From Staphylospora marina (lineage in GTDB: Bacteria > Bacillota > Bacilli > Thermoactinomycetales > Thermoactinomycetaceae), in NCBI RefSeq assembly GCF_003856495.1, contig NZ_CP034118.1, positions 1,810,182 to 1,834,181 of the forward strand: a stretch of 24,000 nucleotides of DNA, given 5' to 3'. The notes beneath the pieces were generated by a model that had not been told where the DNA came from, made no database searches, and saw only the letters and a program-made list of their open reading frames with translations. Below are positions 4,426 through 24,000 of the stretch, piece after piece (within the stretch, counting starts at the first letter, position 1; every line of letters starts with the position of its first letter). The translations under genes and the position numbers were made by a program.

Positions 4426-4451
4426 GAAGAAAAACGGGCGGTCACGCCCGT
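4426..4451 (-). terminator. Rho-independent terminator between dnaJ and prmA (probably partial or leaky)
   Basis: The minus strand reads ACGGGCG-UGAC-CGCCCGU followed by UUUUCUUC. Only about 30 nt separate it from the prmA Shine-Dalgarno, so prmA-rsmE-mtaB probably depend on read-through. Confidence 0.6.
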
Positions 4452-4513
4452 TGTGATTGCATGGATCCTTTTTGTGATTCCGGAAAAAGATGCCCGGAGT
4501 GTCCGTGGTGACA

Positions 4514-5638
4514 TCAATCACCACGGAATGCCTGTTTCATCTTGTCGAAGAAGTTGGTGGATTGCTCCTGTTTGATATATTCGCCGCACAATCTCGTGAA
4601 ATGGCGAAGAGCTTCTTTCTGCTCATCGGTCAGTTTGGTCGGGGTCACGACGCGAACCTTGACCCTGAGATCCCCTTCACCATACCCCCGCAATCTCGGA
4701 ACACCCTTGCCCGGCAAGCGAAACTCGGTGCCCGTTTGGGTTCCGGCGGGAATTTTGAGACGTGCCCGTCCATCCAGCGTCGGAACGATCACTTCGTCAC
4801 CGAGGGCGGCCTGACCGAACGTGATCGGCAGCTCGCATACGAGATCGTCTCCTTCCCTGCGGAACACATCGTGCGGCTTCACCAGGATGGTGATGTACAG
4901 ATCGCCCGGAGGCCCGCCGTTGATTCCCGGCTCTCCTTCCCCGGCAACCCGGAGTTGTGCTCCTTCGTGAATGCCGGCCGGAATCTTGACATTGATCTTT
5001 TTCTTCCGTTTGACCTTTCCGCTTCCGCCGCACGTGTGGCACTTCTCCCGAATGATCCGTCCTTCTCCGCCGCAAACATGGCAGACACGGCGATTGACGA
5101 TCCGGCCGAACGGAGTGTTCTGCACAACCTCCGTCTGTCCGGTTCCGCGGCAAGCGCTGCAGGTTTCAGGATGCGTCCCCGGTTTTGCCCCGCTTCCGAA
5201 GCACGTATCGCACGTCTCGGTGCGCGGAATGACCACATCCACATTTTTGCCGAACACGGCATCCTTGAATTCAATCTGCAAGCGATATTCCAGATCCGCC
5301 CCCTGCTTCGGCGCATGAGGATTGCTCCGGCGACCGCCTCCAAAAAACATATCGAAAATATCGCCAAATCCGAAATCGGTCGCTCCGAAGCCCTGATCCC
5401 CCATTCCGAAGCCGCCGTCTCCGCCGGCATGCCCGAACCGGTCGTAGTTGGCTCTCTTTTGCGGGTCGCTCAGCACTTCATATGCTTCTTTGACTTCCTT
5501 GAACTTCTGTTCGGCGTCCGCCTCCTTGTTCACATCCGGGTGGTACTTGCGGGCCAATTTGCGGTAGGCCTTTCGGATTTCTTCATCCGTGGCCGTTCTT
5601 TGGACACCGAGGACTTCATAGTAGTCGCGCTTGCTCAC
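4514..5638 (-). CDS. dnaJ: Molecular chaperone DnaJ (type I Hsp40)
   Basis: Track ORF 4514..5668, with the start refined to the GTG at 5638 (GAGGAGGTGA Shine-Dalgarno, 6-nt spacer). This gives the canonical N-terminus (M)[11 protein letters not shown]. It has the J-domain HPD motif, a G/F-rich linker, and four CxxCxGxG zinc-finger repeats ([32 protein letters not shown]). Confidence 0.95.
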
Positions 5639-5698
5639 CCGATTCACCTCCTCATCCATCTCCCTCATGCATCAGTTTCGCAGGCCGGGCCCTTTCGC

Positions 5699-5773: not shown

Positions 5774-7645
<1,872 letters not shown>

Positions 7646-7786: not shown

Positions 7787-8461
7787 TCAGACGCTGACCT
7801 TCACCATGGCCGGGCGCAAAACCCGGTCCAGATATCGGTAACCGGTCTGCAGCTCTTCGACAACCGTTCCGGACTCCACATCCCCGGCCTCCACCTGCAT
7901 CACGGCATTGTGCTCGTACGGATTGAAAGGTCGCCCTTCGGCCTCGATCATGCTGAGACCGGCCTGCCCGAGAGTCTGGAGAAATTGACGGTATACCATG
8001 TCAATCCCGTTGATGAACGCCTCCAGTTCGGGAGAAACGGGATGCTCCTGTTGATCGGCCAAGTCAAGAGCGCGTTCAAAGTTGTCCAATACCGGCAACA
8101 AGGATTCCAGCAAGGGGACGGCCGCATACTTGACGGCCTCTTCCTTGTCCTTGCGGGCACGTTTCCGGAAATTCTCAAAATCAGCCATGTTGCGAAGAAG
8201 CTGCTCCCGCGCTTCTTCCGCCTGAGCTTTCCAATCGGCGGCGATCCGCCTTGCGTCCTCGAGTTCGGCGCGCAGCCTTTCGATTTCGGACTCAGGAGAG
8301 TGCACGTCGGCCGAATCCTTCCAATCCGAACTTTCGATATGTAATTCCATACGTTCGGAATGTAATTCCAGACGTTCGGGACGGGTGTCGGGTTCCCGCG
8401 CGTCCTGAGATTGATATTCCCCGGACGTCTGCTGGAAATCCCGCTTTTCCTGATCCAGCAT
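7787..8461 (-). CDS. grpE: Nucleotide exchange factor GrpE with an extended acidic N-terminus
   Basis: Track ORF 7787..8467 begins at TTG. The ATG at 8461 has GGGAGGA 7 nt upstream. The GrpE core is recognisable: LLRNMADFENFRKRARKDKEE..LLPVLDNFERAL..GYRYLDRVLRPAMVKV. The N-terminal region of about 60 aa is acidic and low-complexity and contains a 7-aa tandem duplication. Confidence 0.93.
   Translation of the reverse strand: MLDQEKRDFQQTSGEYQSQDAREPDTRPERLELHSERMELHIESSDWKDSADVHSPESEIERLRAELEDARRIAADWKAQAEEAREQLLRNMADFENFRKRARKDKEEAVKYAAVPLLESLLPVLDNFERALDLADQQEHPVSPELEAFINGIDMVYRQFLQTLGQAGLSMIEAEGRPFNPYEHNAVMQVEAGDVESGTVVEELQTGYRYLDRVLRPAMVKVSV
8339..8380 (-). repeat. In-frame 21-bp tandem duplication inside the grpE N-terminal region
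   Basis: Plus-strand units are atgtaattccatacgttcgga and atgtaattccagacgttcggg (19 of 21 identical). On the minus strand they encode PERLELH and SERMELH. Confidence 0.85.
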
Positions 8462-8486
8462 GAACAAATCCTCCCATGACAGATAC

Positions 8487-10031
8487 TTACGATTGCGGCT
8501 CGTCTTTCATCTTGACAACCGTATGGATGCGGAGGATCGCCGCAGCCACCTCTCCGGCCGCTTTGAGGGCATGCGCCTTGACGGGAAGCGGATCGATGAC
8601 GCCCATTTCGATCATGTCCGCCACCGTTCCCCGGTCGCAGTCAATGCCCAGCGAATCGGACTGCCTTTTGAGCTGGAGCGCTTTGACCTGTTCGATTTTT
8701 TCCAGGGGATTGAATCCGGCATTGGCGACAACCCGGCTCATCGGCTTCTGCAATGCTTCCGCCACGGCGGAAACCCCGAAACGCTCCATTCCCTGCACGG
8801 TATCCCTGAAATGCTCCACTTCCCTGGCGATGGCCAGCTCGATGGCTCCGCCTCCCGGTACGAAACCGCCACGAATCGCAGCCTGGACCGCAGATGCGGC
8901 ATCCCGACAGATGCGTTCCTTTTCTCCCACCACTTCTTCGGTGGAAGCTCCCACCAAAATGGTGGCAAACGGTTTCCCCCGACCTCCGCTGACACGGAAC
9001 CAGCCGAGCACTTCATCATCTTCGGCTTCCGTGCAAAAACCGATGAAGGCATCCAGTTCTTCCACGGATCTGCGAAGACTGCTCCGCTTGACCATCCGGG
9101 CTCCCGTATGTTCGGCAATCCGTTCCAGATCTTCCTGATTCACTCCCGACACGGCGATGATTCCCGCATCGGTCAAAACCTCTTCGGCATACGCATCAAT
9201 CCCGCCGCCGATCACCACCAGACCCACGTTCAACTCGATGAGTTTTTCCACAAACACGTAAAAGTCTTGGCGCAATCTTTCCTGTTTGGCGAATCCGGCA
9301 TCCGTTCCCCGGGCTTCTTCTTCCACCGTTTCCGGTTCGAGAGAGTCGGCGAGCACCAGCACCCGGGCGTTCTCCTTGAACACGGGCATTTGCTGATTGG
9401 CACGCCCGCGGCGGATCATGGTGCCGGAAAACACGATGTTTTCGGCACGGGGATGAGCCATCACGCAGCTGGAGAGCCTGAAATTCTTTTCCAAGAGCTT
9501 CTCACGGCCCACCATCTGGGCGGCTTCGATGACCGCTTGCGTGATTTCCTCGTCTTCCCGGCTGGCGGTGTAAGCAATCCGCTGAAGCCATTCATCATGA
9601 TCCAGTTCATAGATGGGGCGGGATTTTTCCTTCATCTTGTTCAAAGCAAAACGGATCCCCCGCTGGATGCCGGCGATCACCTTGGCGACGGGAACCCCGC
9701 GTGCCACCTGTTTTACGCCCTCGTCCACCAGAGCTGCCGCCAAAAGAGTGGCGGTGGTGGTACCGTCACCCACTTCCTCCTGTTGTGCTTTGGCTACTCC
9801 CACGATCATTTTGGCCGCAGGGTGGTCCACTTCCATCCGCTCCAGAATGGTCACGCCGTCATTGGTCACGATCACCTCGTTGCTGGAGTTGACCAGCATC
9901 GTGTCGAGTCCCTTGGGACCGAGCGTGGATGCAACGGCGGACGCCACGGAACGGACGGCCGCGGCATTGGACAAAAGCGTGGAAAGCTTCGTTTGTTCAT
10001 TCTCAGCGTGAAACTGTTGTTTGTCCGGCAC
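8487..10031 (-). CDS. Thermosome/CCT-type (group II-like, bacterial 'group III') chaperonin, Cpn60/TCP-1 family
   Basis: 514-aa ORF with a GTG start. Its motifs match archaeal thermosome subunits rather than GroEL: [10 protein letters not shown] (GroEL has LGPKGRNV), [66 protein letters not shown], and C-terminal [28 protein letters not shown]. There is no GGM tail and no adjacent groES-like ORF. The stop lies only 25 nt from the grpE start. Confidence 0.88.
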
Positions 10032-10113
10032 CGGGTCTTCCCTTCCTTTCTGTCAAAGGCCGTGAGGGGAACACACGGGTCCCCACCGGATGTCGAAACC
10101 TATATTCACTAGT

Positions 10114-11145
10114 TTATTCTGTTTCGTACAGAGTGCTCAACCTTCTGGAGAAATCTTTGGACAAAAAGTCAATAAGATTGATGATCCGACCATAATCCAT
10201 TCGGGTCGGCCCGAGCACTCCGATGGTTCCGACGACATCCCCGACGATTCGGAACGGTGCCGAAACGATGCTGCAATCATTCACCGCTTCCAGATCATTC
10301 TCACAACCGATGCGCACCTGAACACCGTTGGAGTTCGGCTCAACCAGTTGTGCCAGAACCCCTCCGCCCTCGATCAGATCGAGCAGTGCCTTCAATTTGT
10401 GGACGTCACGAAATTCGGGCTGCTCCAGAATCCTCGTGGCACCGGTGGCATACACGCGCTCTTCGTCTTCCGCCTGGAGAATGCGGTCCAGAAGCGTGGT
10501 CAGCTTTTCGAAATGTTCCACATGCCGTTTCAGTTCTTCATAGAGTTCCTTGGCCATGACCGCCTTGATTTTGGAAAGCGGCACCCCGGCCAGCCGATGG
10601 TTCAGCAGGTTAACCAGTTTTTCCACGGAAGAAAGGGAAACTCCCTCCGGGAAGGTGACGCGTTGCTGATGAACGTGACCGCTGTCGGTCACCAGAATGG
10701 ATACGGCGAGATGATCATGCAGGGGGATGATCTGGAGGTGCTTCAGCCGGCTTTCCATTTGTTTCGGCCCGAGGATGAAAGCCACGCAATTGGTCAGGTT
10801 GGACAGGACCGCGTTGGTGTGCTTGATGACCTGTTCCAAATGATCGACCTTCATGGCGTAATATTCATGAAGCGCCATCAGATCTTCCTTGGTCCACATA
10901 TATGGCTTGAGCAGATGGTCAACGTAAAAACGGTATCCCTTTTGCGAAGGAATTCGTCCGGCAGATGTATGCGGTTGCTCGAGAAACCCCATTTCTTCCA
11001 GGTCGGCCATCTCATTTCGGATGGTCGCCGCGCTGAATCCCACGCCCTTTTTGCGGGACACCGTCCGGGATCCAACCGGCTCTGCCGAGACGATGTAATC
11101 GTCGATCACCGCCCAGAGGATCAGTCTCTGCCGCTCGGTCAACAT
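10114..11145 (-). CDS. hrcA: Heat-inducible transcription repressor HrcA
   Basis: Track ORF 10114..11160 begins at TTG. The ATG at 11145 is preceded by GGGAGGGAGG and gives MLTERQRLILWAVIDDYIVSAEPVGSRTV..IRNEMADLEEMGFLEQPHTSAGRIPSQKGYRFYVDHL, the canonical HrcA winged-helix N-terminus. A CIRCE operator lies directly upstream. Confidence 0.95.
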   Translation of the reverse strand: MLTERQRLILWAVIDDYIVSAEPVGSRTVSRKKGVGFSAATIRNEMADLEEMGFLEQPHTSAGRIPSQKGYRFYVDHLLKPYMWTKEDLMALHEYYAMKVDHLEQVIKHTNAVLSNLTNCVAFILGPKQMESRLKHLQIIPLHDHLAVSILVTDSGHVHQQRVTFPEGVSLSSVEKLVNLLNHRLAGVPLSKIKAVMAKELYEELKRHVEHFEKLTTLLDRILQAEDEERVYATGATRILEQPEFRDVHKLKALLDLIEGGGVLAQLVEPNSNGVQVRIGCENDLEAVNDCSIVSAPFRIVGDVVGTIGVLGPTRMDYGRIINLIDFLSKDFSRRLSTLYETE

Positions 11146-11163
11146 CTGCCTCCCTCCCAATTG

Positions 11164-11190
11164 TTAGCACTCTGATCCCACGAGTGCTAA
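11164..11190. promoter_or_regulatory. CIRCE operator (HrcA binding site), a perfect inverted repeat
   Basis: TTAGCACTC-tgatcccac-GAGTGCTAA is an exact match to the consensus TTAGCACTC-N9-GAGTGCTAA. It lies between the candidate -10 element and the hrcA start. Confidence 0.95.
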
Positions 11191-11202
11191 TAACCTGATT
11201 TT

Positions 11203-11231
11203 AAATTACCAAACGGCCGAAAACATGTCAA
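11203..11231 (-). promoter_or_regulatory. Sigma-A-type promoter of the hrcA-chaperonin-grpE-dnaK operon
   Basis: The minus strand reads TTGACA, a 17-nt spacer, then TGgTAATTT (extended -10). It sits immediately upstream of CIRCE and begins 8 nt after the hemW stop. Confidence 0.65.
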
Positions 11232-18025: not shown

Positions 18026-18643
18026 TTATCCGGACTTTTCGCCCGTCAGTTTTCTCGCCGTGGCACTGGTCTGTACCTCTTTTTCGTCGGGGAACGTTCC
18101 GAATAGCCGGTCGCACACGCTGTGCGTCACTCCGAACCAGTAACGTTCGTTTTTGAAATGATGAAGCAAGTGTTGCCGCTTGAGCCTCCTCCCCCATTTG
18201 GTGATCGGTCTGACGGGCCTGTGGGCCACATAATGCGTCCACTCGTAATGAAGCAATCCGAGAACCGAACCGGCGGTCAAAAGCAGCGCCCATCCCCATG
18301 AATCGGTGAGCCACAGGGTGACGGCGCCGACCAGAATCAGCTGGGGTCCGCTGTACCAAATCGGCAGGAACAGGAGCTTCAGATCATCCGGTCGTTCGTG
18401 GTGATCATAATGCAGGCGGCGAAGCAGCTTGAACAGAACGGGATGTTTGGGAGGCGACATGTGAAACACAAAGCGGTGAGTGGCGTATTCCATTGCGGAA
18501 AACAAAAGCGCGCCGACCGGTATGCCCAACCACGCCCGCCCGGTCCCGGAAACAAGGAAACCGGACACCACCAATACGGGAAAAGCGAGACTGAGGATCA
18601 GAATGTCGGGAAACAGAAAAAACTCTTTCCATGCCCTTCTCAT
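18026..18643 (-). CDS. Fatty acid hydroxylase / sterol desaturase superfamily integral membrane protein (di-iron His-box enzyme)
   Basis: 205-aa ORF with about 4 hydrophobic segments and His boxes HRFVFH, HYDHH, HYVAH and HLLHH. The ATG at 18643 has AAGGGA 6 nt upstream. The substrate cannot be inferred from the sequence. Confidence 0.7.
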   Translation of the reverse strand: MRRAWKEFFLFPDILILSLAFPVLVVSGFLVSGTGRAWLGIPVGALLFSAMEYATHRFVFHMSPPKHPVLFKLLRRLHYDHHERPDDLKLLFLPIWYSGPQLILVGAVTLWLTDSWGWALLLTAGSVLGLLHYEWTHYVAHRPVRPITKWGRRLKRQHLLHHFKNERYWFGVTHSVCDRLFGTFPDEKEVQTSATARKLTGEKSG

Positions 18644-18758: not shown

Positions 18759-20171
18759 TCAACGGGGATCGGAAGCCGTCCGCACCGGCCCGGGTTCCCG
18801 TCCTTTCCCGAACACGGACGCATACACAAGCCCGGAAGCCGCCACCATCAGGGCAAATACGAGGAACAGATTGCTGTACGGAAGGGCGGCCTTCTCCAAT
18901 CCGAACGGAAGAAGCCGGAAATCAAACAGCCCGCTTGACAGCAGGGCGGCCACTCCCGCCGTGCCGATCGCCCCGGAGATGAACGCGCTCAGACCGTAAA
19001 AGCCCATGCCCACCCCGATCCGCTCAGGCTGGAGAGTCCGGGTGATGGTTTCGGCCATGGCCGTTTGCACGAACGACTGGCCGATGTACAGGAGAACCAA
19101 CACACCGCTGATGAGCCACACCCACCTGTCGGTCACTCCCGCCAGAAGGAACAAACTGCCGCTTGCCAATCCCAAACCGGTCAGAACCACCGCGTAATCC
19201 CCTTTTTTGGCGGTCAGATGCCCGGCCACCGTTCCGAAGATGACGGCGCTGAACGCTCCCGGGAACATGATCAGCCCGATCCGGTCCGTCGTCAGGCCGT
19301 GCACATGGGTCATCATCAGCGGGATCAAAAAGATCACCCCGAAAATGGCCCCGAACAGCAAAAAGCCCATGCCCACTCCGAACGTGTATTTTCGGTTTCG
19401 AAACAGCCCGGGGTCCACGAACGGTTCGGGAACACGGCGGATGTGAAAGACAAACCAGGTCGCGAGGACCGCGCTTGCCACCAGCCAAATCCAATCCATC
19501 AAGGTGAAGAACATCACCAGCGCCGTGAATCCGATTGCCAGGAGGGCCGCCCCGGCAATGTCCACCTTGGCATCGGTCCGCTTCGATTCTTCCTCGGGAA
19601 GCCATTTCAGAAAGGCCGGGATGGTCACCACCGTGAACAAGGGGATGAGCAGCAGAAAGGACCAGTGAAGATAGCGGGAGACAAAGCCCCCGATCACGGG
19701 TCCCACTCCCACCGCGAACGAGGCGGTGGAGGTGAACAGTCCGAACAGTTTCCCCCGTTGCTCCGGAGTGAAGTAACGGGCGACGATCACCATGGTGAGG
19801 GCCGGGAGCGCCGACGCGCCTGCCCCCTGAATCACGCGCGACGCAATCACCGCCGGATACCATGCCTCAAGCAAGGCTCCCAGCAGGGATGAACCAGCAT
19901 ACGTGAGAATGCCGATGATCATCAGCCGGCGCAACTCGTACACATCGGCCAACTTGCCGAAGATGATCTGTCCGACTCCGAAGGAAATGATGAACGCGGT
20001 GACCACCCAGCTGACCTCGGTCGGGGCGAGACCGTACTGTTCGGCAATCTTGGGGATGGACACGTTGAACACCGTTTCATTCAACACGGCGAAAAACACG
20101 ACATAAATGACCAGGAAGGAAAATCTCCGCAGATCGAATCTCTTCGCATGTTCAGATTGTGACATATGCAT
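18759..20171 (-). CDS. MFS transporter, DHA2 (EmrB/QacA-like, probably 14-TMS) drug:H+ antiporter family
   Basis: 470-aa highly hydrophobic ORF. It has MFS motif A (GKLADVYELRRLMIIG) and antiporter motif C (GVGPVIGGF). AGGAG lies upstream of the tandem ATGs at 20171 and 20165. Confidence 0.85.
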   Translation of the reverse strand: MHMSQSEHAKRFDLRRFSFLVIYVVFFAVLNETVFNVSIPKIAEQYGLAPTEVSWVVTAFIISFGVGQIIFGKLADVYELRRLMIIGILTYAGSSLLGALLEAWYPAVIASRVIQGAGASALPALTMVIVARYFTPEQRGKLFGLFTSTASFAVGVGPVIGGFVSRYLHWSFLLLIPLFTVVTIPAFLKWLPEEESKRTDAKVDIAGAALLAIGFTALVMFFTLMDWIWLVASAVLATWFVFHIRRVPEPFVDPGLFRNRKYTFGVGMGFLLFGAIFGVIFLIPLMMTHVHGLTTDRIGLIMFPGAFSAVIFGTVAGHLTAKKGDYAVVLTGLGLASGSLFLLAGVTDRWVWLISGVLVLLYIGQSFVQTAMAETITRTLQPERIGVGMGFYGLSAFISGAIGTAGVAALLSSGLFDFRLLPFGLEKAALPYSNLFLVFALMVAASGLVYASVFGKGREPGPVRTASDPR

Positions 20172-20412: not shown

Positions 20413-21393
<981 letters not shown>

Positions 21394-21413: not shown

Positions 21414-21682
21414 AAAAAAAGAAAACGCCCGCCCCGCAAAGGGACGAGCGGTTGCTCGCGGTACCACCCTTTTTCGTCCGGCACCGACTGCCGAACGCAC
21501 TTCATGCGGATAACGGGATGTTCCCGGCCTTTCCTACCAGGGAGATTCCCCTTCGGAAAGGCGGCTCCGAAGCCCATTCACGCGTCGGACCGACCGGCTT
21601 GCACCTGCCGCCGGCTCTCTGGACGGACCGGGTCGCGCTACTCTCCTTCTTCCTCGCCGCTGCAATGTTCCGATGTGACGGT
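21414..21682 (-). promoter_or_regulatory. T-box riboswitch leader with a Trp (UGG) specifier, controlling trpS
   Basis: On the minus strand: the AGAGAG box followed by the GGUGCAA distal-loop motif; a specifier-loop context GAA-UGG-G (UGG at 21574-21576); an F-box-like CCGUUA (21511-21516); the T-box sequence GGGUGGUACCGCG (21457-21469); and a terminator CGCUCGUCCC-UUUGC-GGGGCGGGCG followed by UUUUCUUUUUUU (21414-21450). Confidence 0.9.
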
Positions 21683-21756: not shown

Positions 21757-21780
21757 GATGTCAGATGAGGAGGGACGGAA

Positions 21781-22284
21781 ATGGCGCATACTTTGCCGCT
21801 GCATCTTCACTGGTTGGCCCCGCTGGCCGCCTTCGTCATGGCCACGACGATGATCATCTTCCGTCTTCGTGCCGCCAACCGGCCGGTCAACGTTCAAAAA
21901 ATCCTTTTGCCGCCCCTCGGCATGAGCACGGGTTTTTTGATGTTTGTGTATCCGCCCACCCACATCCCCTGGTCTTGGGCACTGATCGCATTTCTGACCG
22001 GATCGCTCCTGTTCTCCGTTCCGCTGATCCGGGCCACTGCCTTCCACATGGTGGACGGAAAGGTATATGTCAAACGTTCCAAAGCACTTGTTTGGATCCT
22101 GCTCTCATTGTTTTCCATCCGGATTTTGCTTCACTCCTGGATCGAACAGCACATCGACGTGTTCCAAACCGCTTCCGTGTTTTTCATCCTGGCCTTCGGC
22201 ATGCTCCTTCCCTGGCGTCTCGCGATGTACTTCCAATACCGCAAATTCATGAAGGAGCATCAGCGGAAAACCGCCACTTCCTGA
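21781..22284 (+). CDS. CcdC-like (DUF1453-type) small integral membrane protein
   Basis: 167-aa ORF with AGGAGGG 6 nt upstream of the ATG and about 4 TM segments. The motifs KILLPPLGMSTGFLMF, KRSKALVWILL and ILAFGMLLPWRLAMYFQYRKF resemble my recollection of Bacillus CcdC/YneJ. The family call is from memory only. Confidence 0.6.
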   Translation: MAHTLPLHLHWLAPLAAFVMATTMIIFRLRAANRPVNVQKILLPPLGMSTGFLMFVYPPTHIPWSWALIAFLTGSLLFSVPLIRATAFHMVDGKVYVKRSKALVWILLSLFSIRILLHSWIEQHIDVFQTASVFFILAFGMLLPWRLAMYFQYRKFMKEHQRKTATS

Positions 22285-22301
22285 GTCGACATGAAAGATG
22301 C

Positions 22302-22333
22302 GCGTTGCCGTCCCGCTTCGGTAACGCTTTTTT
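22302..22333 (+). terminator. Rho-independent terminator of the CcdC-like gene
   Basis: GCGUUGCCG-ucccgcuu-CGGUAACGC (one G-U pair) followed by UUUUUU, 18 nt after the stop. Confidence 0.75.
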
Positions 22334-22352
22334 CATCGCGGGCTTCTTGCCA

Positions 22353-22859
22353 TCATTCGCCGGAATCGCGGCCTGCCCTGCCCCCCGTTTCGCAAGGGGG
22401 GGCCTTTTTTGAGAAATTCTCTTCCGATTCCACGCGGATGCCATGTCGGCGAAACAGGGCGGCGGTCACGCCGGCTCCCGGCTTTTTCCGACCGCTGAAC
22501 GTTCCGTCATAGATGGCACAGCTTCCGCAAGACGGACTTTTCTCCTTGAGAATCGCGTGTTTGGCCCCCACGGCCTTTGCCAAGGCCAGTGCCTCACGGG
22601 CACCCCGCAAAAATTGTTCGGTCACGTCATTCCCCCGGTTGTCCACCACACGGGCTTTTCCGTCAAGCACGTCATCGCCGTCCCCGCCCACGATCTCCGC
22701 GGGAGGTCGCGGGGTCTTCAAACCGCCCAACTGTTCGGGACAAACCGGAATCGCTTCTCCGCTCCGAATCAATTCCACGATTTCTTCCACCCGGTTGTGC
22801 TTTCCGTCGTAACGGCAATGCAACCCCGCGAAGCAGGCGCTCACGATTTTCTTGTCCAT
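22353..22859 (-). CDS. DUF523 family protein (TudS-like, putative [4Fe-4S] thiouracil desulfidase family)
   Basis: Track ORF 22353..22940, with the start refined to the ATG at 22859, giving MDKKIVSACFAGLHCRYDG. It has the conserved Cys triad contexts SAC..RYDG, PVCPEQLGG and KSPSCG. An unusual C-terminal tail of about 19 aa (SKKAPPCETGGRAGRDSGE) follows. Confidence 0.8.
   Translation of the reverse strand: MDKKIVSACFAGLHCRYDGKHNRVEEIVELIRSGEAIPVCPEQLGGLKTPRPPAEIVGGDGDDVLDGKARVVDNRGNDVTEQFLRGAREALALAKAVGAKHAILKEKSPSCGSCAIYDGTFSGRKKPGAGVTAALFRRHGIRVESEENFSKKAPPCETGGRAGRDSGE
22380..22410 (+). terminator. Second plus-strand intrinsic terminator, embedded in the 3' coding end of the convergent DUF523 gene
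   Basis: GCCCCCC-guuucgcaag-GGGGGGC followed by CUUUUUU. On the minus strand the same bases encode ..KKAPPCETGG.. of the DUF523 ORF tail. Confidence 0.6.
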
Positions 22860-23023
22860 GATGTTGGCCCCCACCTTTTTGGGATATTTTATCACAAAGA
22901 GGTTCACGAAATTTTCGAACTCAGTCGGATCCCTGTGCATTCCGCCACAAAGTTGCTACAATACGAAGAGTGGAAACGATTGTAATCCGGGATCGGAATC
23001 CTTTTTCTGAACACAATCCGGAA

Positions 23024-23058
23024 GCCGGGAGAAGGCGGAACCGCTCCGCTTCCCCGGC
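23024..23058 (+). other. Imperfect 14-bp stem-loop upstream of the oxidoreductase gene
   Basis: GCCGGG(a)GAA(g)GCGGA-accgc-TCCGCTTCCCCGGC pairs as 6+3+1+4 bp with two single-nucleotide bulges. No U-tract follows. It ends 15 nt before the GGAGGAG Shine-Dalgarno. Confidence 0.5.
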
Positions 23059-23091
23059 GGATCCGGTTCCATGGAGGAGTGAGCATGATTC

Positions 23092-24000
23092 GTGCCTGAA
23101 AAAGTGTTGGTGGCAGGCGGAGGATTGGCCGGCCTGAGCGCCGCCGCGCGCCTCGCCGTCCACGGATATGACGTGACTCTTCTTGAAAAGGCGCCGAAAC
23201 TGGGAGGAAGGGCCATCACCATTCCCCTGAAAGGGTTCAATTTCAACTTTGGCGCCCACTGCATTTACGGCCGGGACAAATCGGTTCTCAAAAAATACGA
23301 GAGCGAGCTCGGACTCCGCGTGGACTGGCGGGACTTCTCCCCGTCCAAAGCGTATTACGACATGGGCGATTACACCACGCCGATGCCGGCCACGCTGGAG
23401 GGATTGTACCGGACCCGTGTGCTGGATTCGCAAAACAAAATCCGGTTCGCCTATGAAGTGTTCAAAACCATGGCGCACCTTGAAACGGGAGAAGAAGGGA
23501 TTCCCATCGGCGAATATCTGGAGAAGGAGTCGGCACAGGTCCGCGACCTCTTCCTGACGATCGCTTCGTCCAACTTCTTCACCAACGAATCCGAAAAAAT
23601 TCCTTCCCCGCTTTTCTTTCAATACTACCGGCGACTGTTTTCGACGCAAAAAGCCGTTTCATACATCGGGGGCGGCTGGCAATCCATCGTCGACGGATTT
23701 GCGAATCTGATCGAACAGAACGGCGGGAAAATCATCACCAAGGAAAAGGCAACCCGGGTCGAGACGGAAGGTAACCGGGTGCGTGCCGTCATCGGCAAAG
23801 ACGGGGAACGGTATGAAGCGGATCATTTCATTTTTTGCATCCCGCCCAAGGAACTGGTCTCCCTGTTCGAAGGCACCCCCCATGTCGGCCTGTTTGAAGA
23901 ATACCGGCGGTACTCGCCCACGCTGGTGGTGGTGTACGACGTCGGCCTGCGCGAGCGCATTCACAGCCCGTTCACGTACATCTACCACAAGGCGGACCGG
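23092..24000 (+). CDS. NAD(P)/FAD-dependent oxidoreductase, phytoene-desaturase (CrtI) / amine-oxidase-like family; 3' end beyond the window
   Basis: Own translation from the GTG at 23092 gives (M)PEKVLVAGGGLAGLSAAARLAVHGYDVTLLEKAPKLGGRA.. (Rossmann GxGxxG plus the downstream E and GGR), continuing ..YIGGGWQSIVDGFANLIEQNGGKIITKEKATRVE.. to the window end without a stop. It is not in the ORF track because it is open-ended. The start is uncertain: the GTG at 23104 or the TTG at 23107 are also possible. Confidence 0.75.
   Translation, partial: MPEKVLVAGGGLAGLSAAARLAVHGYDVTLLEKAPKLGGRAITIPLKGFNFNFGAHCIYGRDKSVLKKYESELGLRVDWRDFSPSKAYYDMGDYTTPMPATLEGLYRTRVLDSQNKIRFAYEVFKTMAHLETGEEGIPIGEYLEKESAQVRDLFLTIASSNFFTNESEKIPSPLFFQYYRRLFSTQKAVSYIGGGWQSIVDGFANLIEQNGGKIITKEKATRVETEGNRVRAVIGKDGERYEADHFIFCIPPKELVSLFEGTPHVGLFEEYRRYSPTLVVVYDVGLRERIHSPFTYIYHKADR

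Follow-up and report, generated by a model that had tools for sequence, protein, structure and literature searches.

A probable group III chaperonin gene in the dnaK operon of Staphylospora marina

The chaperonin gene and its operon

The 24,000-nucleotide stretch of the Staphylospora marina genome analyzed here (contig NZ_CP034118.1, positions 1,810,182 to 1,834,181; hereafter the window) carries on its minus strand a gene of the Cpn60/TCP-1 family, situated between hrcA and grpE. This gene very probably encodes a functional group III chaperonin, a member of the bacterial thermosome-like branch of Cpn60/TCP-1, the prototype of which is Ch-CPN. It occupies positions 8487..10031 of the minus strand as an unbroken open reading frame (ORF) of 514 codons plus a stop, with a GTG start that has a ribosome-binding site (RBS), GAAAGGAAGGG, 5' of it; the GTG start and the RBS are both kept in orthologous loci. 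An earlier reading of the same DNA, made from its letters alone (the sequence-only reading), had placed a 514-residue ORF at exactly these coordinates, without giving a strand. The motifs that it quoted are all found in the translation, including VTNDGVTIL, VPGGGAIE and IDPLPVK...LRIHTVV. As it had also observed, a GGM tail is absent, the protein ending in ...KMKDEPQS, and so is the GroEL-type ITKDG, the stem-loop motif being TNDG and not TKDG. The family profile PF00118 (Cpn60/TCP-1) covers residues 29-509 of the protein, corresponding to profile positions 1-489 of 490, with a score of 373 bits. The G+C content of the gene (0.574) resembles that of its neighbors, again as the sequence-only reading had it, values over the window being uniform at 0.53-0.60.

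Antisense to the chaperonin gene, and longer than it, lies a plus-strand ORF of 550 amino acids (8460-10112). Long antisense ORFs that mirror genes are frequent across this 57% G+C window; they are read as mechanical artefacts and could mislead strand calls.

The order of genes on the minus strand is gpr, spoIIP, DUF3679, lepA, a hemW-like radical S-adenosylmethionine gene, hrcA, the chaperonin gene (cpn), grpE, dnaK, dnaJ, prmA, rsmE and an mtaB-like gene. The heat-shock repressor gene hrcA (10114..11145, minus strand; PF01628, 221 bits) probably starts with the ATG at 11145 and would then encode 343 amino acids, as does its orthologue in the related contig L027. The mechanically called hrcA ORF extends over 10114-11160, its TTG at 11160 falling within the hrcA RBS, GGGAGGGAGG. 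On the other side of the chaperonin gene, grpE (7787..8467, minus strand; PF01025, 170 bits) begins 19 bp 3' of the chaperonin stop. It is followed by dnaK (5774..7603, minus strand; PF00012, 841 bits), the probable start of which at 7603 gives 609 amino acids, as in the L027 orthologue, the mechanical ORF beginning at 7645, and by dnaJ (4514..5668, minus strand; PF00226, PF01556 and PF00684). These Pfam matches to HrcA, GrpE, DnaK and DnaJ on one strand confirm the position between hrcA and grpE that had been assigned to the chaperonin gene from the letters.

Upstream of hrcA, at 11164..11190 (no strand assigned), is a predicted CIRCE operator, the binding site of HrcA, in the form of a perfect inverted repeat, TTAGCACTC-N9-GAGTGCTAA; the hrcA RBS lies between it and the ATG at 11145. 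The repeat has no mismatch, is the sole match in the window when up to three mismatches are allowed, and had no counterpart in any of 100 shuffles, while exact matches to the same pattern are present 5' of hrcA in four related contigs (L027-L030). Directly upstream of CIRCE, a putative sigma-A-like promoter (11203..11231, minus strand; TTGACA, a 17-nt spacer and TAATTT) was read from the sequence, a consensus scan not having reported it. Downstream of dnaJ, a hairpin of eight pairs, six of them G-C, followed by a T-run (4433..4452, minus strand) matches the pattern of an intrinsic terminator and is likely the end of the operon, the total count of terminator-like sites in the region not exceeding the shuffle expectation. 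The chaperonin gene would thus be the second, co-transcribed cistron of a sigma-A/CIRCE/HrcA-controlled operon, hrcA-cpn-grpE-dnaK-dnaJ, and as a consequence of this arrangement the chaperonin is expected to be heat-induced at the same time as the Hsp70 machinery and to act beside it.

The gaps that flank the chaperonin gene, 82 bp on the hrcA side and 19 bp on the grpE side, leave no space for a groES gene beside it. Consistent with the statement of the sequence-only reading that no groES-like ORF is adjacent, a tblastn search of the 24-kb window with four GroES proteins, and with one upstream ORF included by mistake, found none (best E 0.19), and a tblastn search of the same window for GroEL-like sequences found none besides the chaperonin itself. 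A conserved structured hairpin between hrcA and cpn was also considered, and was rejected as the fold is not better than that of shuffles (z = +0.96); across orthologous loci, conservation of this intergenic stretch is limited to the RBS and the start.

Chaperonin group and origin of the gene

Among the hidden Markov models (HMMs) of NCBIfam, those for thermosomes score 296, 286 and 280 bits on the chaperonin, those for CCT about 230-158 bits and those for GroEL at most 197 bits, so that thermosome ranks above GroEL, in line with the sequence-only reading. All of the thermosome, CCT and GroEL cut-offs are nevertheless missed: thermosome_alpha reaches 295.6 of the required 450 bits, TIGR02339 285.5 of 671 and the GroEL model 197 of 352, the GroEL match being split into two stretches of the equatorial domain. 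Scores that all lie below the curated cut-offs are what is expected for a clade that belongs to neither group I nor group II. In a ranking of PDB sequences, 9rwq stands first with 564 bits and an alignment that spans residues 2-510, followed by 5x9u/5x9v (Ch-CPN) with 407 bits, 9rwp (ancestral group II) with 288 and thermosomes with at most 218. The entry 9RWQ is ACIII, a reconstructed group III ancestor (data-availability statement and Fig. 5; PMC12696368). Its PDB molecule name reads "Ancestral Group II Chaperonin (ACII)", which is misleading, as the sequence is clearly group III-like.

Profiles built for this analysis give the same ranking of groups, with 739 bits for group III, 264 bits for group II and 165 bits for GroEL. 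The group III profile was made from Clostridia-type members and Ch-CPN, leaving out the Thermoactinomycetaceae-like sub-clade to which the chaperonin belongs; the group II profile was derived from four thermosomes and the GroEL profile from eleven GroELs. A neighbor-joining (NJ) tree of 85 sequences (504 columns, 200 bootstraps) took its group I outgroup from distant GroEL loci, which also supplied the GroES queries. In this distance tree, a split with a bootstrap of 198/200 separates the chaperonin, its homologues, Ch-CPN and ACIII from the remaining sequences and so places the protein inside group III, whereas group II, GroEL and the Thermoactinomycetaceae-type sub-clade that includes the chaperonin are each recovered in 200/200.

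The predicted structure agrees with this placement. An AlphaFold2 model computed from a 55-sequence alignment has a predicted local distance difference test score of 90.5 and a predicted template-modelling score of 0.84, and its apical domain shows a helix at 244-266 that is preceded by a protruding loop and a short helix, that is, a built-in helical lid. The best Foldseek matches in the PDB are the closed and open group III structures, 5x9v_A and 5x9u_A (template-modelling (TM) score 0.88-0.92, root-mean-square deviation 2.5 Å, 43% identity), followed by Mm-cpn, TKS1, thermosome and CCT subunits at TM scores of about 0.76-0.85. HMM scores, PDB matches, profiles, tree and model all support the view of the sequence-only reading that the protein is of group III.

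The hallmark features of group III were taken from An et al. 2017 (PMC5635000) and checked on HMMER and MAFFT alignments. In the nucleotide-sensing loop, the chaperonin has a six-column gap relative to ACII, TKS1 and the thermosomes of T. acidophilum and S. solfataricus; the extended loop with its conserved Lys, a group II trait, is absent, and in its place is Arg158, which aligns with the group-III-specific Arg155 of Ch-CPN and does not vary among the 55 homologues aligned. The lid matches that of Ch-CPN without insertion or deletion and falls short of the group II lid by 3-4 residues, consistent with the deletion of about four residues before alpha11 by which the group III lid is reported to be shorter (PMC5635000). 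The ATP-site and catalytic residues Asn55, Asp56 and Asp373 of Ch-CPN are retained as N57, D58 and D377. The "ball" Leu439 corresponds to the invariant L443, and the socket K109/V111/M411/Y414 to R111/V113/M415/F418; Arg at the K109 position is the majority residue across group III, and Phe at the Y414 position is typical of the Thermoactinomycetaceae-like sub-clade.

These residues bear on whether the gene is still in use. It could be a decaying or ATPase-dead relic, unexpressed or acting as a passive holdase, and in favor of this idea the catalytic Asp is gone from some 20 of 122 related proteins of group III, so that the family tolerates such changes, and GroEL presumably fills the essential chaperonin role. 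This is very unlikely, given that N57, D58, R158 and D377 are all retained, that the ORF is of full length and its start and RBS are conserved, and that the gene is part of an operon in which the predicted promoter and CIRCE are intact. Furthermore, the ratio of nonsynonymous to synonymous substitution rates (dN/dS) against orthologues is 0.075-0.09, an approximate value as dS is saturated, and a ratio of about 0.08 speaks for a gene under purifying selection.

The change in the related proteins is TNAG for TNDG, by which the catalytic Asp of the stem loop (Asp56 in Ch-CPN) becomes Ala. Its carriers (P0041-43, P0046-49, P0051-54, P0058, P0064, P0071, P0073, P0077, P0079, P0095, P0096 and P0109; locus L033, 2454-3995) form two or more separate clusters. 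Among these carriers, P0048 is still encoded in an hrcA-cpn-grpE-dnaK arrangement, where the chaperonin has diverged to an unusual degree compared with the DnaK of the same locus. As judged from this residue, the TNAG proteins may be ATPase-altered variants.

A protein identical to the Staphylospora chaperonin is absent from the collection searched; the nearest relative, at 82% identity, comes from a Joint Genome Institute metagenome. Every named relative in the range of 63-78% identity belongs to the Thermoactinomycetaceae (Paenactinomyces, Thermoactinomyces daqus, Hazenella, Croceifilum, Melghirimyces, Marinithermofilum, Salinithrix, Desmospora and Marininema), and at about 54% identity are the Clostridia-type Desulforamulus, Desulfotomaculum and Thermosediminibacter, as well as Paenibacillus hamazuiensis. 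Relatives in the databases are already labelled "TCP-1/cpn60 chaperonin family protein" or "thermosome-like protein". The arrangement hrcA-cpn-grpE-dnaK-dnaJ, with most of the flanking genes, is common to two Thermoactinomycetaceae-like contigs, D. reducens MI-1, P. hamazuiensis and one further contig; the sequence set of An et al. (PMC5635000) included D. reducens MI-1. Between positions 2687 and 18000 of the window, about 15 kb of gene order is common to the loci of Desulforamulus reducens (L031) and Paenibacillus hamazuiensis (L032). As this order (rpsT, (gpr), spoIIP, lepA, hemW, hrcA, cpn, grpE, dnaK, dnaJ, prmA, rsmE, mtaB) is found in Bacilli-type and Clostridia-type genomes alike, the chaperonin gene appears to sit in a very old conserved Firmicutes neighborhood. 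With relatives among Thermoactinomycetaceae and the same synteny, the locus is, as the sequence-only reading had put it, a further member of the class in the context of an aerobic-type spore former.

Within the sub-clade, the identities of the chaperonin track those of dnaK, hrcA, dnaJ and lepA, which makes a recent insertion unlikely, and the gene looks vertically inherited within the Thermoactinomycetaceae lineage. In comparisons among Thermoactinomycetaceae, Paenibacillus and Desulforamulus, the chaperonin stays at about 54% identity throughout, whereas the identities of hrcA and dnaJ follow taxonomy, a pattern that could reflect a change of rate or separate acquisitions. These observations also weigh on the idea that an archaeal group II thermosome gene was recently transferred horizontally into a dnaK operon, which would fit the thermosome HMMs being the best NCBIfam matches and an overall fold resembling that of thermosomes (TM about 0.82 with Mm-cpn and with TKS1). 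Such a transfer is hardly credible and a group II thermosome identity was rejected: the thermosome scores are far below the cut-offs (296 against 450-671), the six-residue nucleotide-sensing loop and its Lys are missing, the protein groups with Ch-CPN and ACIII and not with the five group II references, the G+C content equals that of the flanks, the insertion site is common to Bacilli and Clostridia, and, within the clade, orthologue identities keep pace with those of dnaK, hrcA and dnaJ. The sequence-only reading had likewise seen no recent insertion here. Least credible of all is a highly divergent GroEL (group I) paralogue working with a GroES encoded elsewhere, which was rejected despite the significant partial GroEL matches in the equatorial domain and the extra GroEL copies of many Firmicutes (PMC5220055), because the group III profile far outscores the GroEL profile (739 against 165 bits), the GroEL model matches are split and under cut-off, the GGM tail is lacking, the stem loop is TNDG, the apical helical protrusion is present and GroEL splits off in the tree with full support.

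Lid tip and proposed working cycle

The one feature in which the Staphylospora protein departs from the description of its class is the tip of the lid. The cluster Leu237, Phe243, Tyr246 and Phe253 of Ch-CPN, called strictly conserved by An et al. 2017 (PMC5635000), corresponds to R241, F247, Q250 and F257 in the chaperonin, so that two of the four are kept. The position of Tyr246 is Tyr in all 69 other group III proteins and Gln in 43 of the 53 members of the Thermoactinomycetaceae-like sub-clade, in which the Leu237 position is variable (Arg in the present protein). On these alignments, group III proteins do not all have the hydrophobic lid tip of the prototype, and the remodelled tip of the sub-clade is the one point absent from the group III literature compared here. 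As a result of the R241 and Q250 replacements, the docking of clients or co-chaperones at the lid may differ from that in Ch-CPN.

It is conceivable, although the idea is tentative and probably wrong, that the Thermoactinomycetaceae-type proteins form a functionally diverged group III sub-lineage, in which a remodelled lid tip goes with altered docking of clients or DnaK. The lid tip is the proposed site of client binding or of docking by a partner such as DnaK, and this sub-lineage of aerobic spore formers may therefore differ from the Clostridia-type prototype in how clients are captured or handed off. If so, group III would, together with the TNAG relatives, be mechanistically heterogeneous and not a single Ch-CPN-like machine.

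The analysis establishes the integrity of the gene, its family and clade, the indels, residues and fold that mark group III, the layout of the operon, the operator, the synteny and purifying selection. Several points weigh against a functional group III chaperonin. First, two of the four lid-tip hydrophobics described as strictly conserved are replaced, L237 by R241 and Y246 by Q250; the phrase is treated here as a descriptive generalization and not as a criterion that defines group III. Second, the tree was made by a distance method with five group II references, archaeal or reconstructed, and is without CCT and without the Thaumarchaeota branch. Third, the search for groES and groEL, a canonical pair of which is expected elsewhere in the genome of a group III host, is confined to the 24-kb window. 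Fourth, the promoter and the terminator are pattern matches, and this protein and its whole sub-clade are known from sequence and a predicted model alone. A group III chaperonin nevertheless remains by far the best account of the gene.

For such a chaperonin, we infer the oligomeric state, ATP-driven closure, heat induction and cooperation with DnaK as follows. By homology to Ch-CPN, identical subunits (2 x 8) would assemble into a homo-hexadecamer, one octameric ring stacked on another, and ATP would be bound in the equatorial domain. On binding of ATP, N57/D58 of the stem loop and R158 and D377 of the intermediate domain would be drawn onto the phosphates, an inter-subunit beta-sheet would lever each neighbor inward on the Leu443 ball-and-socket pivots, and the cavity would be shut by the helical protrusions of the apical domains (about residues 227-267) without the need for GroES. 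Ch-CPN itself closes on ATP binding, with a Hill coefficient near 1 (PMC5635000). In the cell, the chaperonin would be co-induced by heat with DnaK, DnaJ and GrpE via CIRCE/HrcA and would possibly receive clients from DnaK, a direct hand-off that has been proposed but not demonstrated (PMC5635000, PMC5220055).

Wider neighborhood and comparison with known systems

Beyond rpsT, the window contains, as in contig L027, a fatty-acid hydroxylase-family gene (18026-18643, minus strand) and a major facilitator superfamily transporter gene (18759-20171, minus strand). A gene for a class I Trp/Tyr-type tRNA synthetase of 324 amino acids (20413-21387, minus strand; PF00579), by its size probably trpS, is preceded 5' by a T-box leader at 21437-21663 of the minus strand (RF00230, 129.8 bits, full model). 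A gene of the 2-thiouracil desulfurase family lies at 22353-22940 (minus strand). The ORFs without a Pfam match are those at 163-1488, 21765-22412 and 22443-22985 on the plus strand and at 872-1507, 22921-23649 and 23659-23988 on the minus strand.

The class to which the chaperonin is assigned is already known: it was described in 2010, named and solved structurally in 2016-2017 and restudied in 2025, and the Staphylospora locus is a further member. The sequence-only reading had attributed the name "group III" to Techtmann and Robb (2010), which is not so. Their term, as given in the later papers that cite them (PMC5635000, PMC5220055, PMC12696368), was "archaeal-like chaperonins"; the proposal of "group III" is credited to Rowland 2016 by Conway de Macario et al. 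(PMC5220055), and Robb, Cha and colleagues used the name in their papers from 2016-2017 (PMC5635000). Already in 2017, 195 group III members were reported (PMC5635000). Nor is the lid mechanism still poorly understood, as had been stated, since crystal structures of Ch-CPN exist in the open (PDB 5X9U) and closed (5X9V) states (An et al. 2017, PMC5635000). Group III bears on the origin of the GroEL and thermosome/CCT branches and on the coupling of chaperonins to Hsp70 in bacteria. To these questions the Staphylospora locus adds no new principle; it offers a clean case of a group III gene under predicted CIRCE/HrcA control in an endospore former of the Bacillales type (Thermoactinomycetaceae-like). 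Thermoactinomycetaceae are described as aerobic, and the proteins of this clade could suit tests of the DnaK-chaperonin hand-off and of the role of the lid tip.

The closest natural protein of solved structure is Ch-CPN of Carboxydothermus hydrogenoformans, to which the Staphylospora chaperonin is 43% identical along its entire length and with which it shares the topology of three domains (equatorial, intermediate and apical), the short alpha6-alpha7 loop with its Arg (R158/R155), the length of the lid, the catalytic N/D/D residues and the Leu ball. It differs from Ch-CPN in the R241 and Q250 of its lid tip, in the socket, where K109 is replaced by R and Y414 by F, and in its short C-terminal tail (KMKDEPQS). 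The hosts also differ, an aerobic-type endospore former (Bacillales) as opposed to an anaerobic, thermophilic carboxydotroph of the class Clostridia. Location in the dnaK operon is shared with group III generally, the genes of which are embedded there with one exception (PMC5635000), the Staphylospora gene lying between hrcA and grpE. ACIII, the highest-scoring solved sequence, is inferred and not natural; it forms double octameric rings by cryo-electron microscopy (2025, PMC12696368) and keeps the L/F/Y/F lid tip that the Staphylospora protein has lost in part.

With group II chaperonins (thermosome, CCT/TRiC), the protein has in common the built-in helical lid, the lack of GroES, the TNDG stem loop, the GDGTTT P-loop and the overall fold (TM about 0.8). 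Group II proteins, however, have a nucleotide-sensing loop that is six residues longer and carries the conserved Lys, and a lid that is 3-4 residues longer with a beta-strand iris (PMC5635000). Group II genes are found in archaeal and eukaryotic genomes, unlike the Staphylospora gene, which has its place in the dnaK operon of a bacterium. The loci of Desulforamulus and Paenibacillus have the same flanks as this operon, with lepA and hemW upstream and prmA, rsmE and mtaB downstream. In Bacillus subtilis, the hrcA-grpE-dnaK-dnaJ operon begins with hrcA, is transcribed from a sigma-A promoter and is controlled by HrcA through CIRCE. The Staphylospora locus has the same layout of promoter, CIRCE and leading hrcA, and differs from the B. 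subtilis-type operon in having an extra chaperonin cistron between hrcA and grpE.

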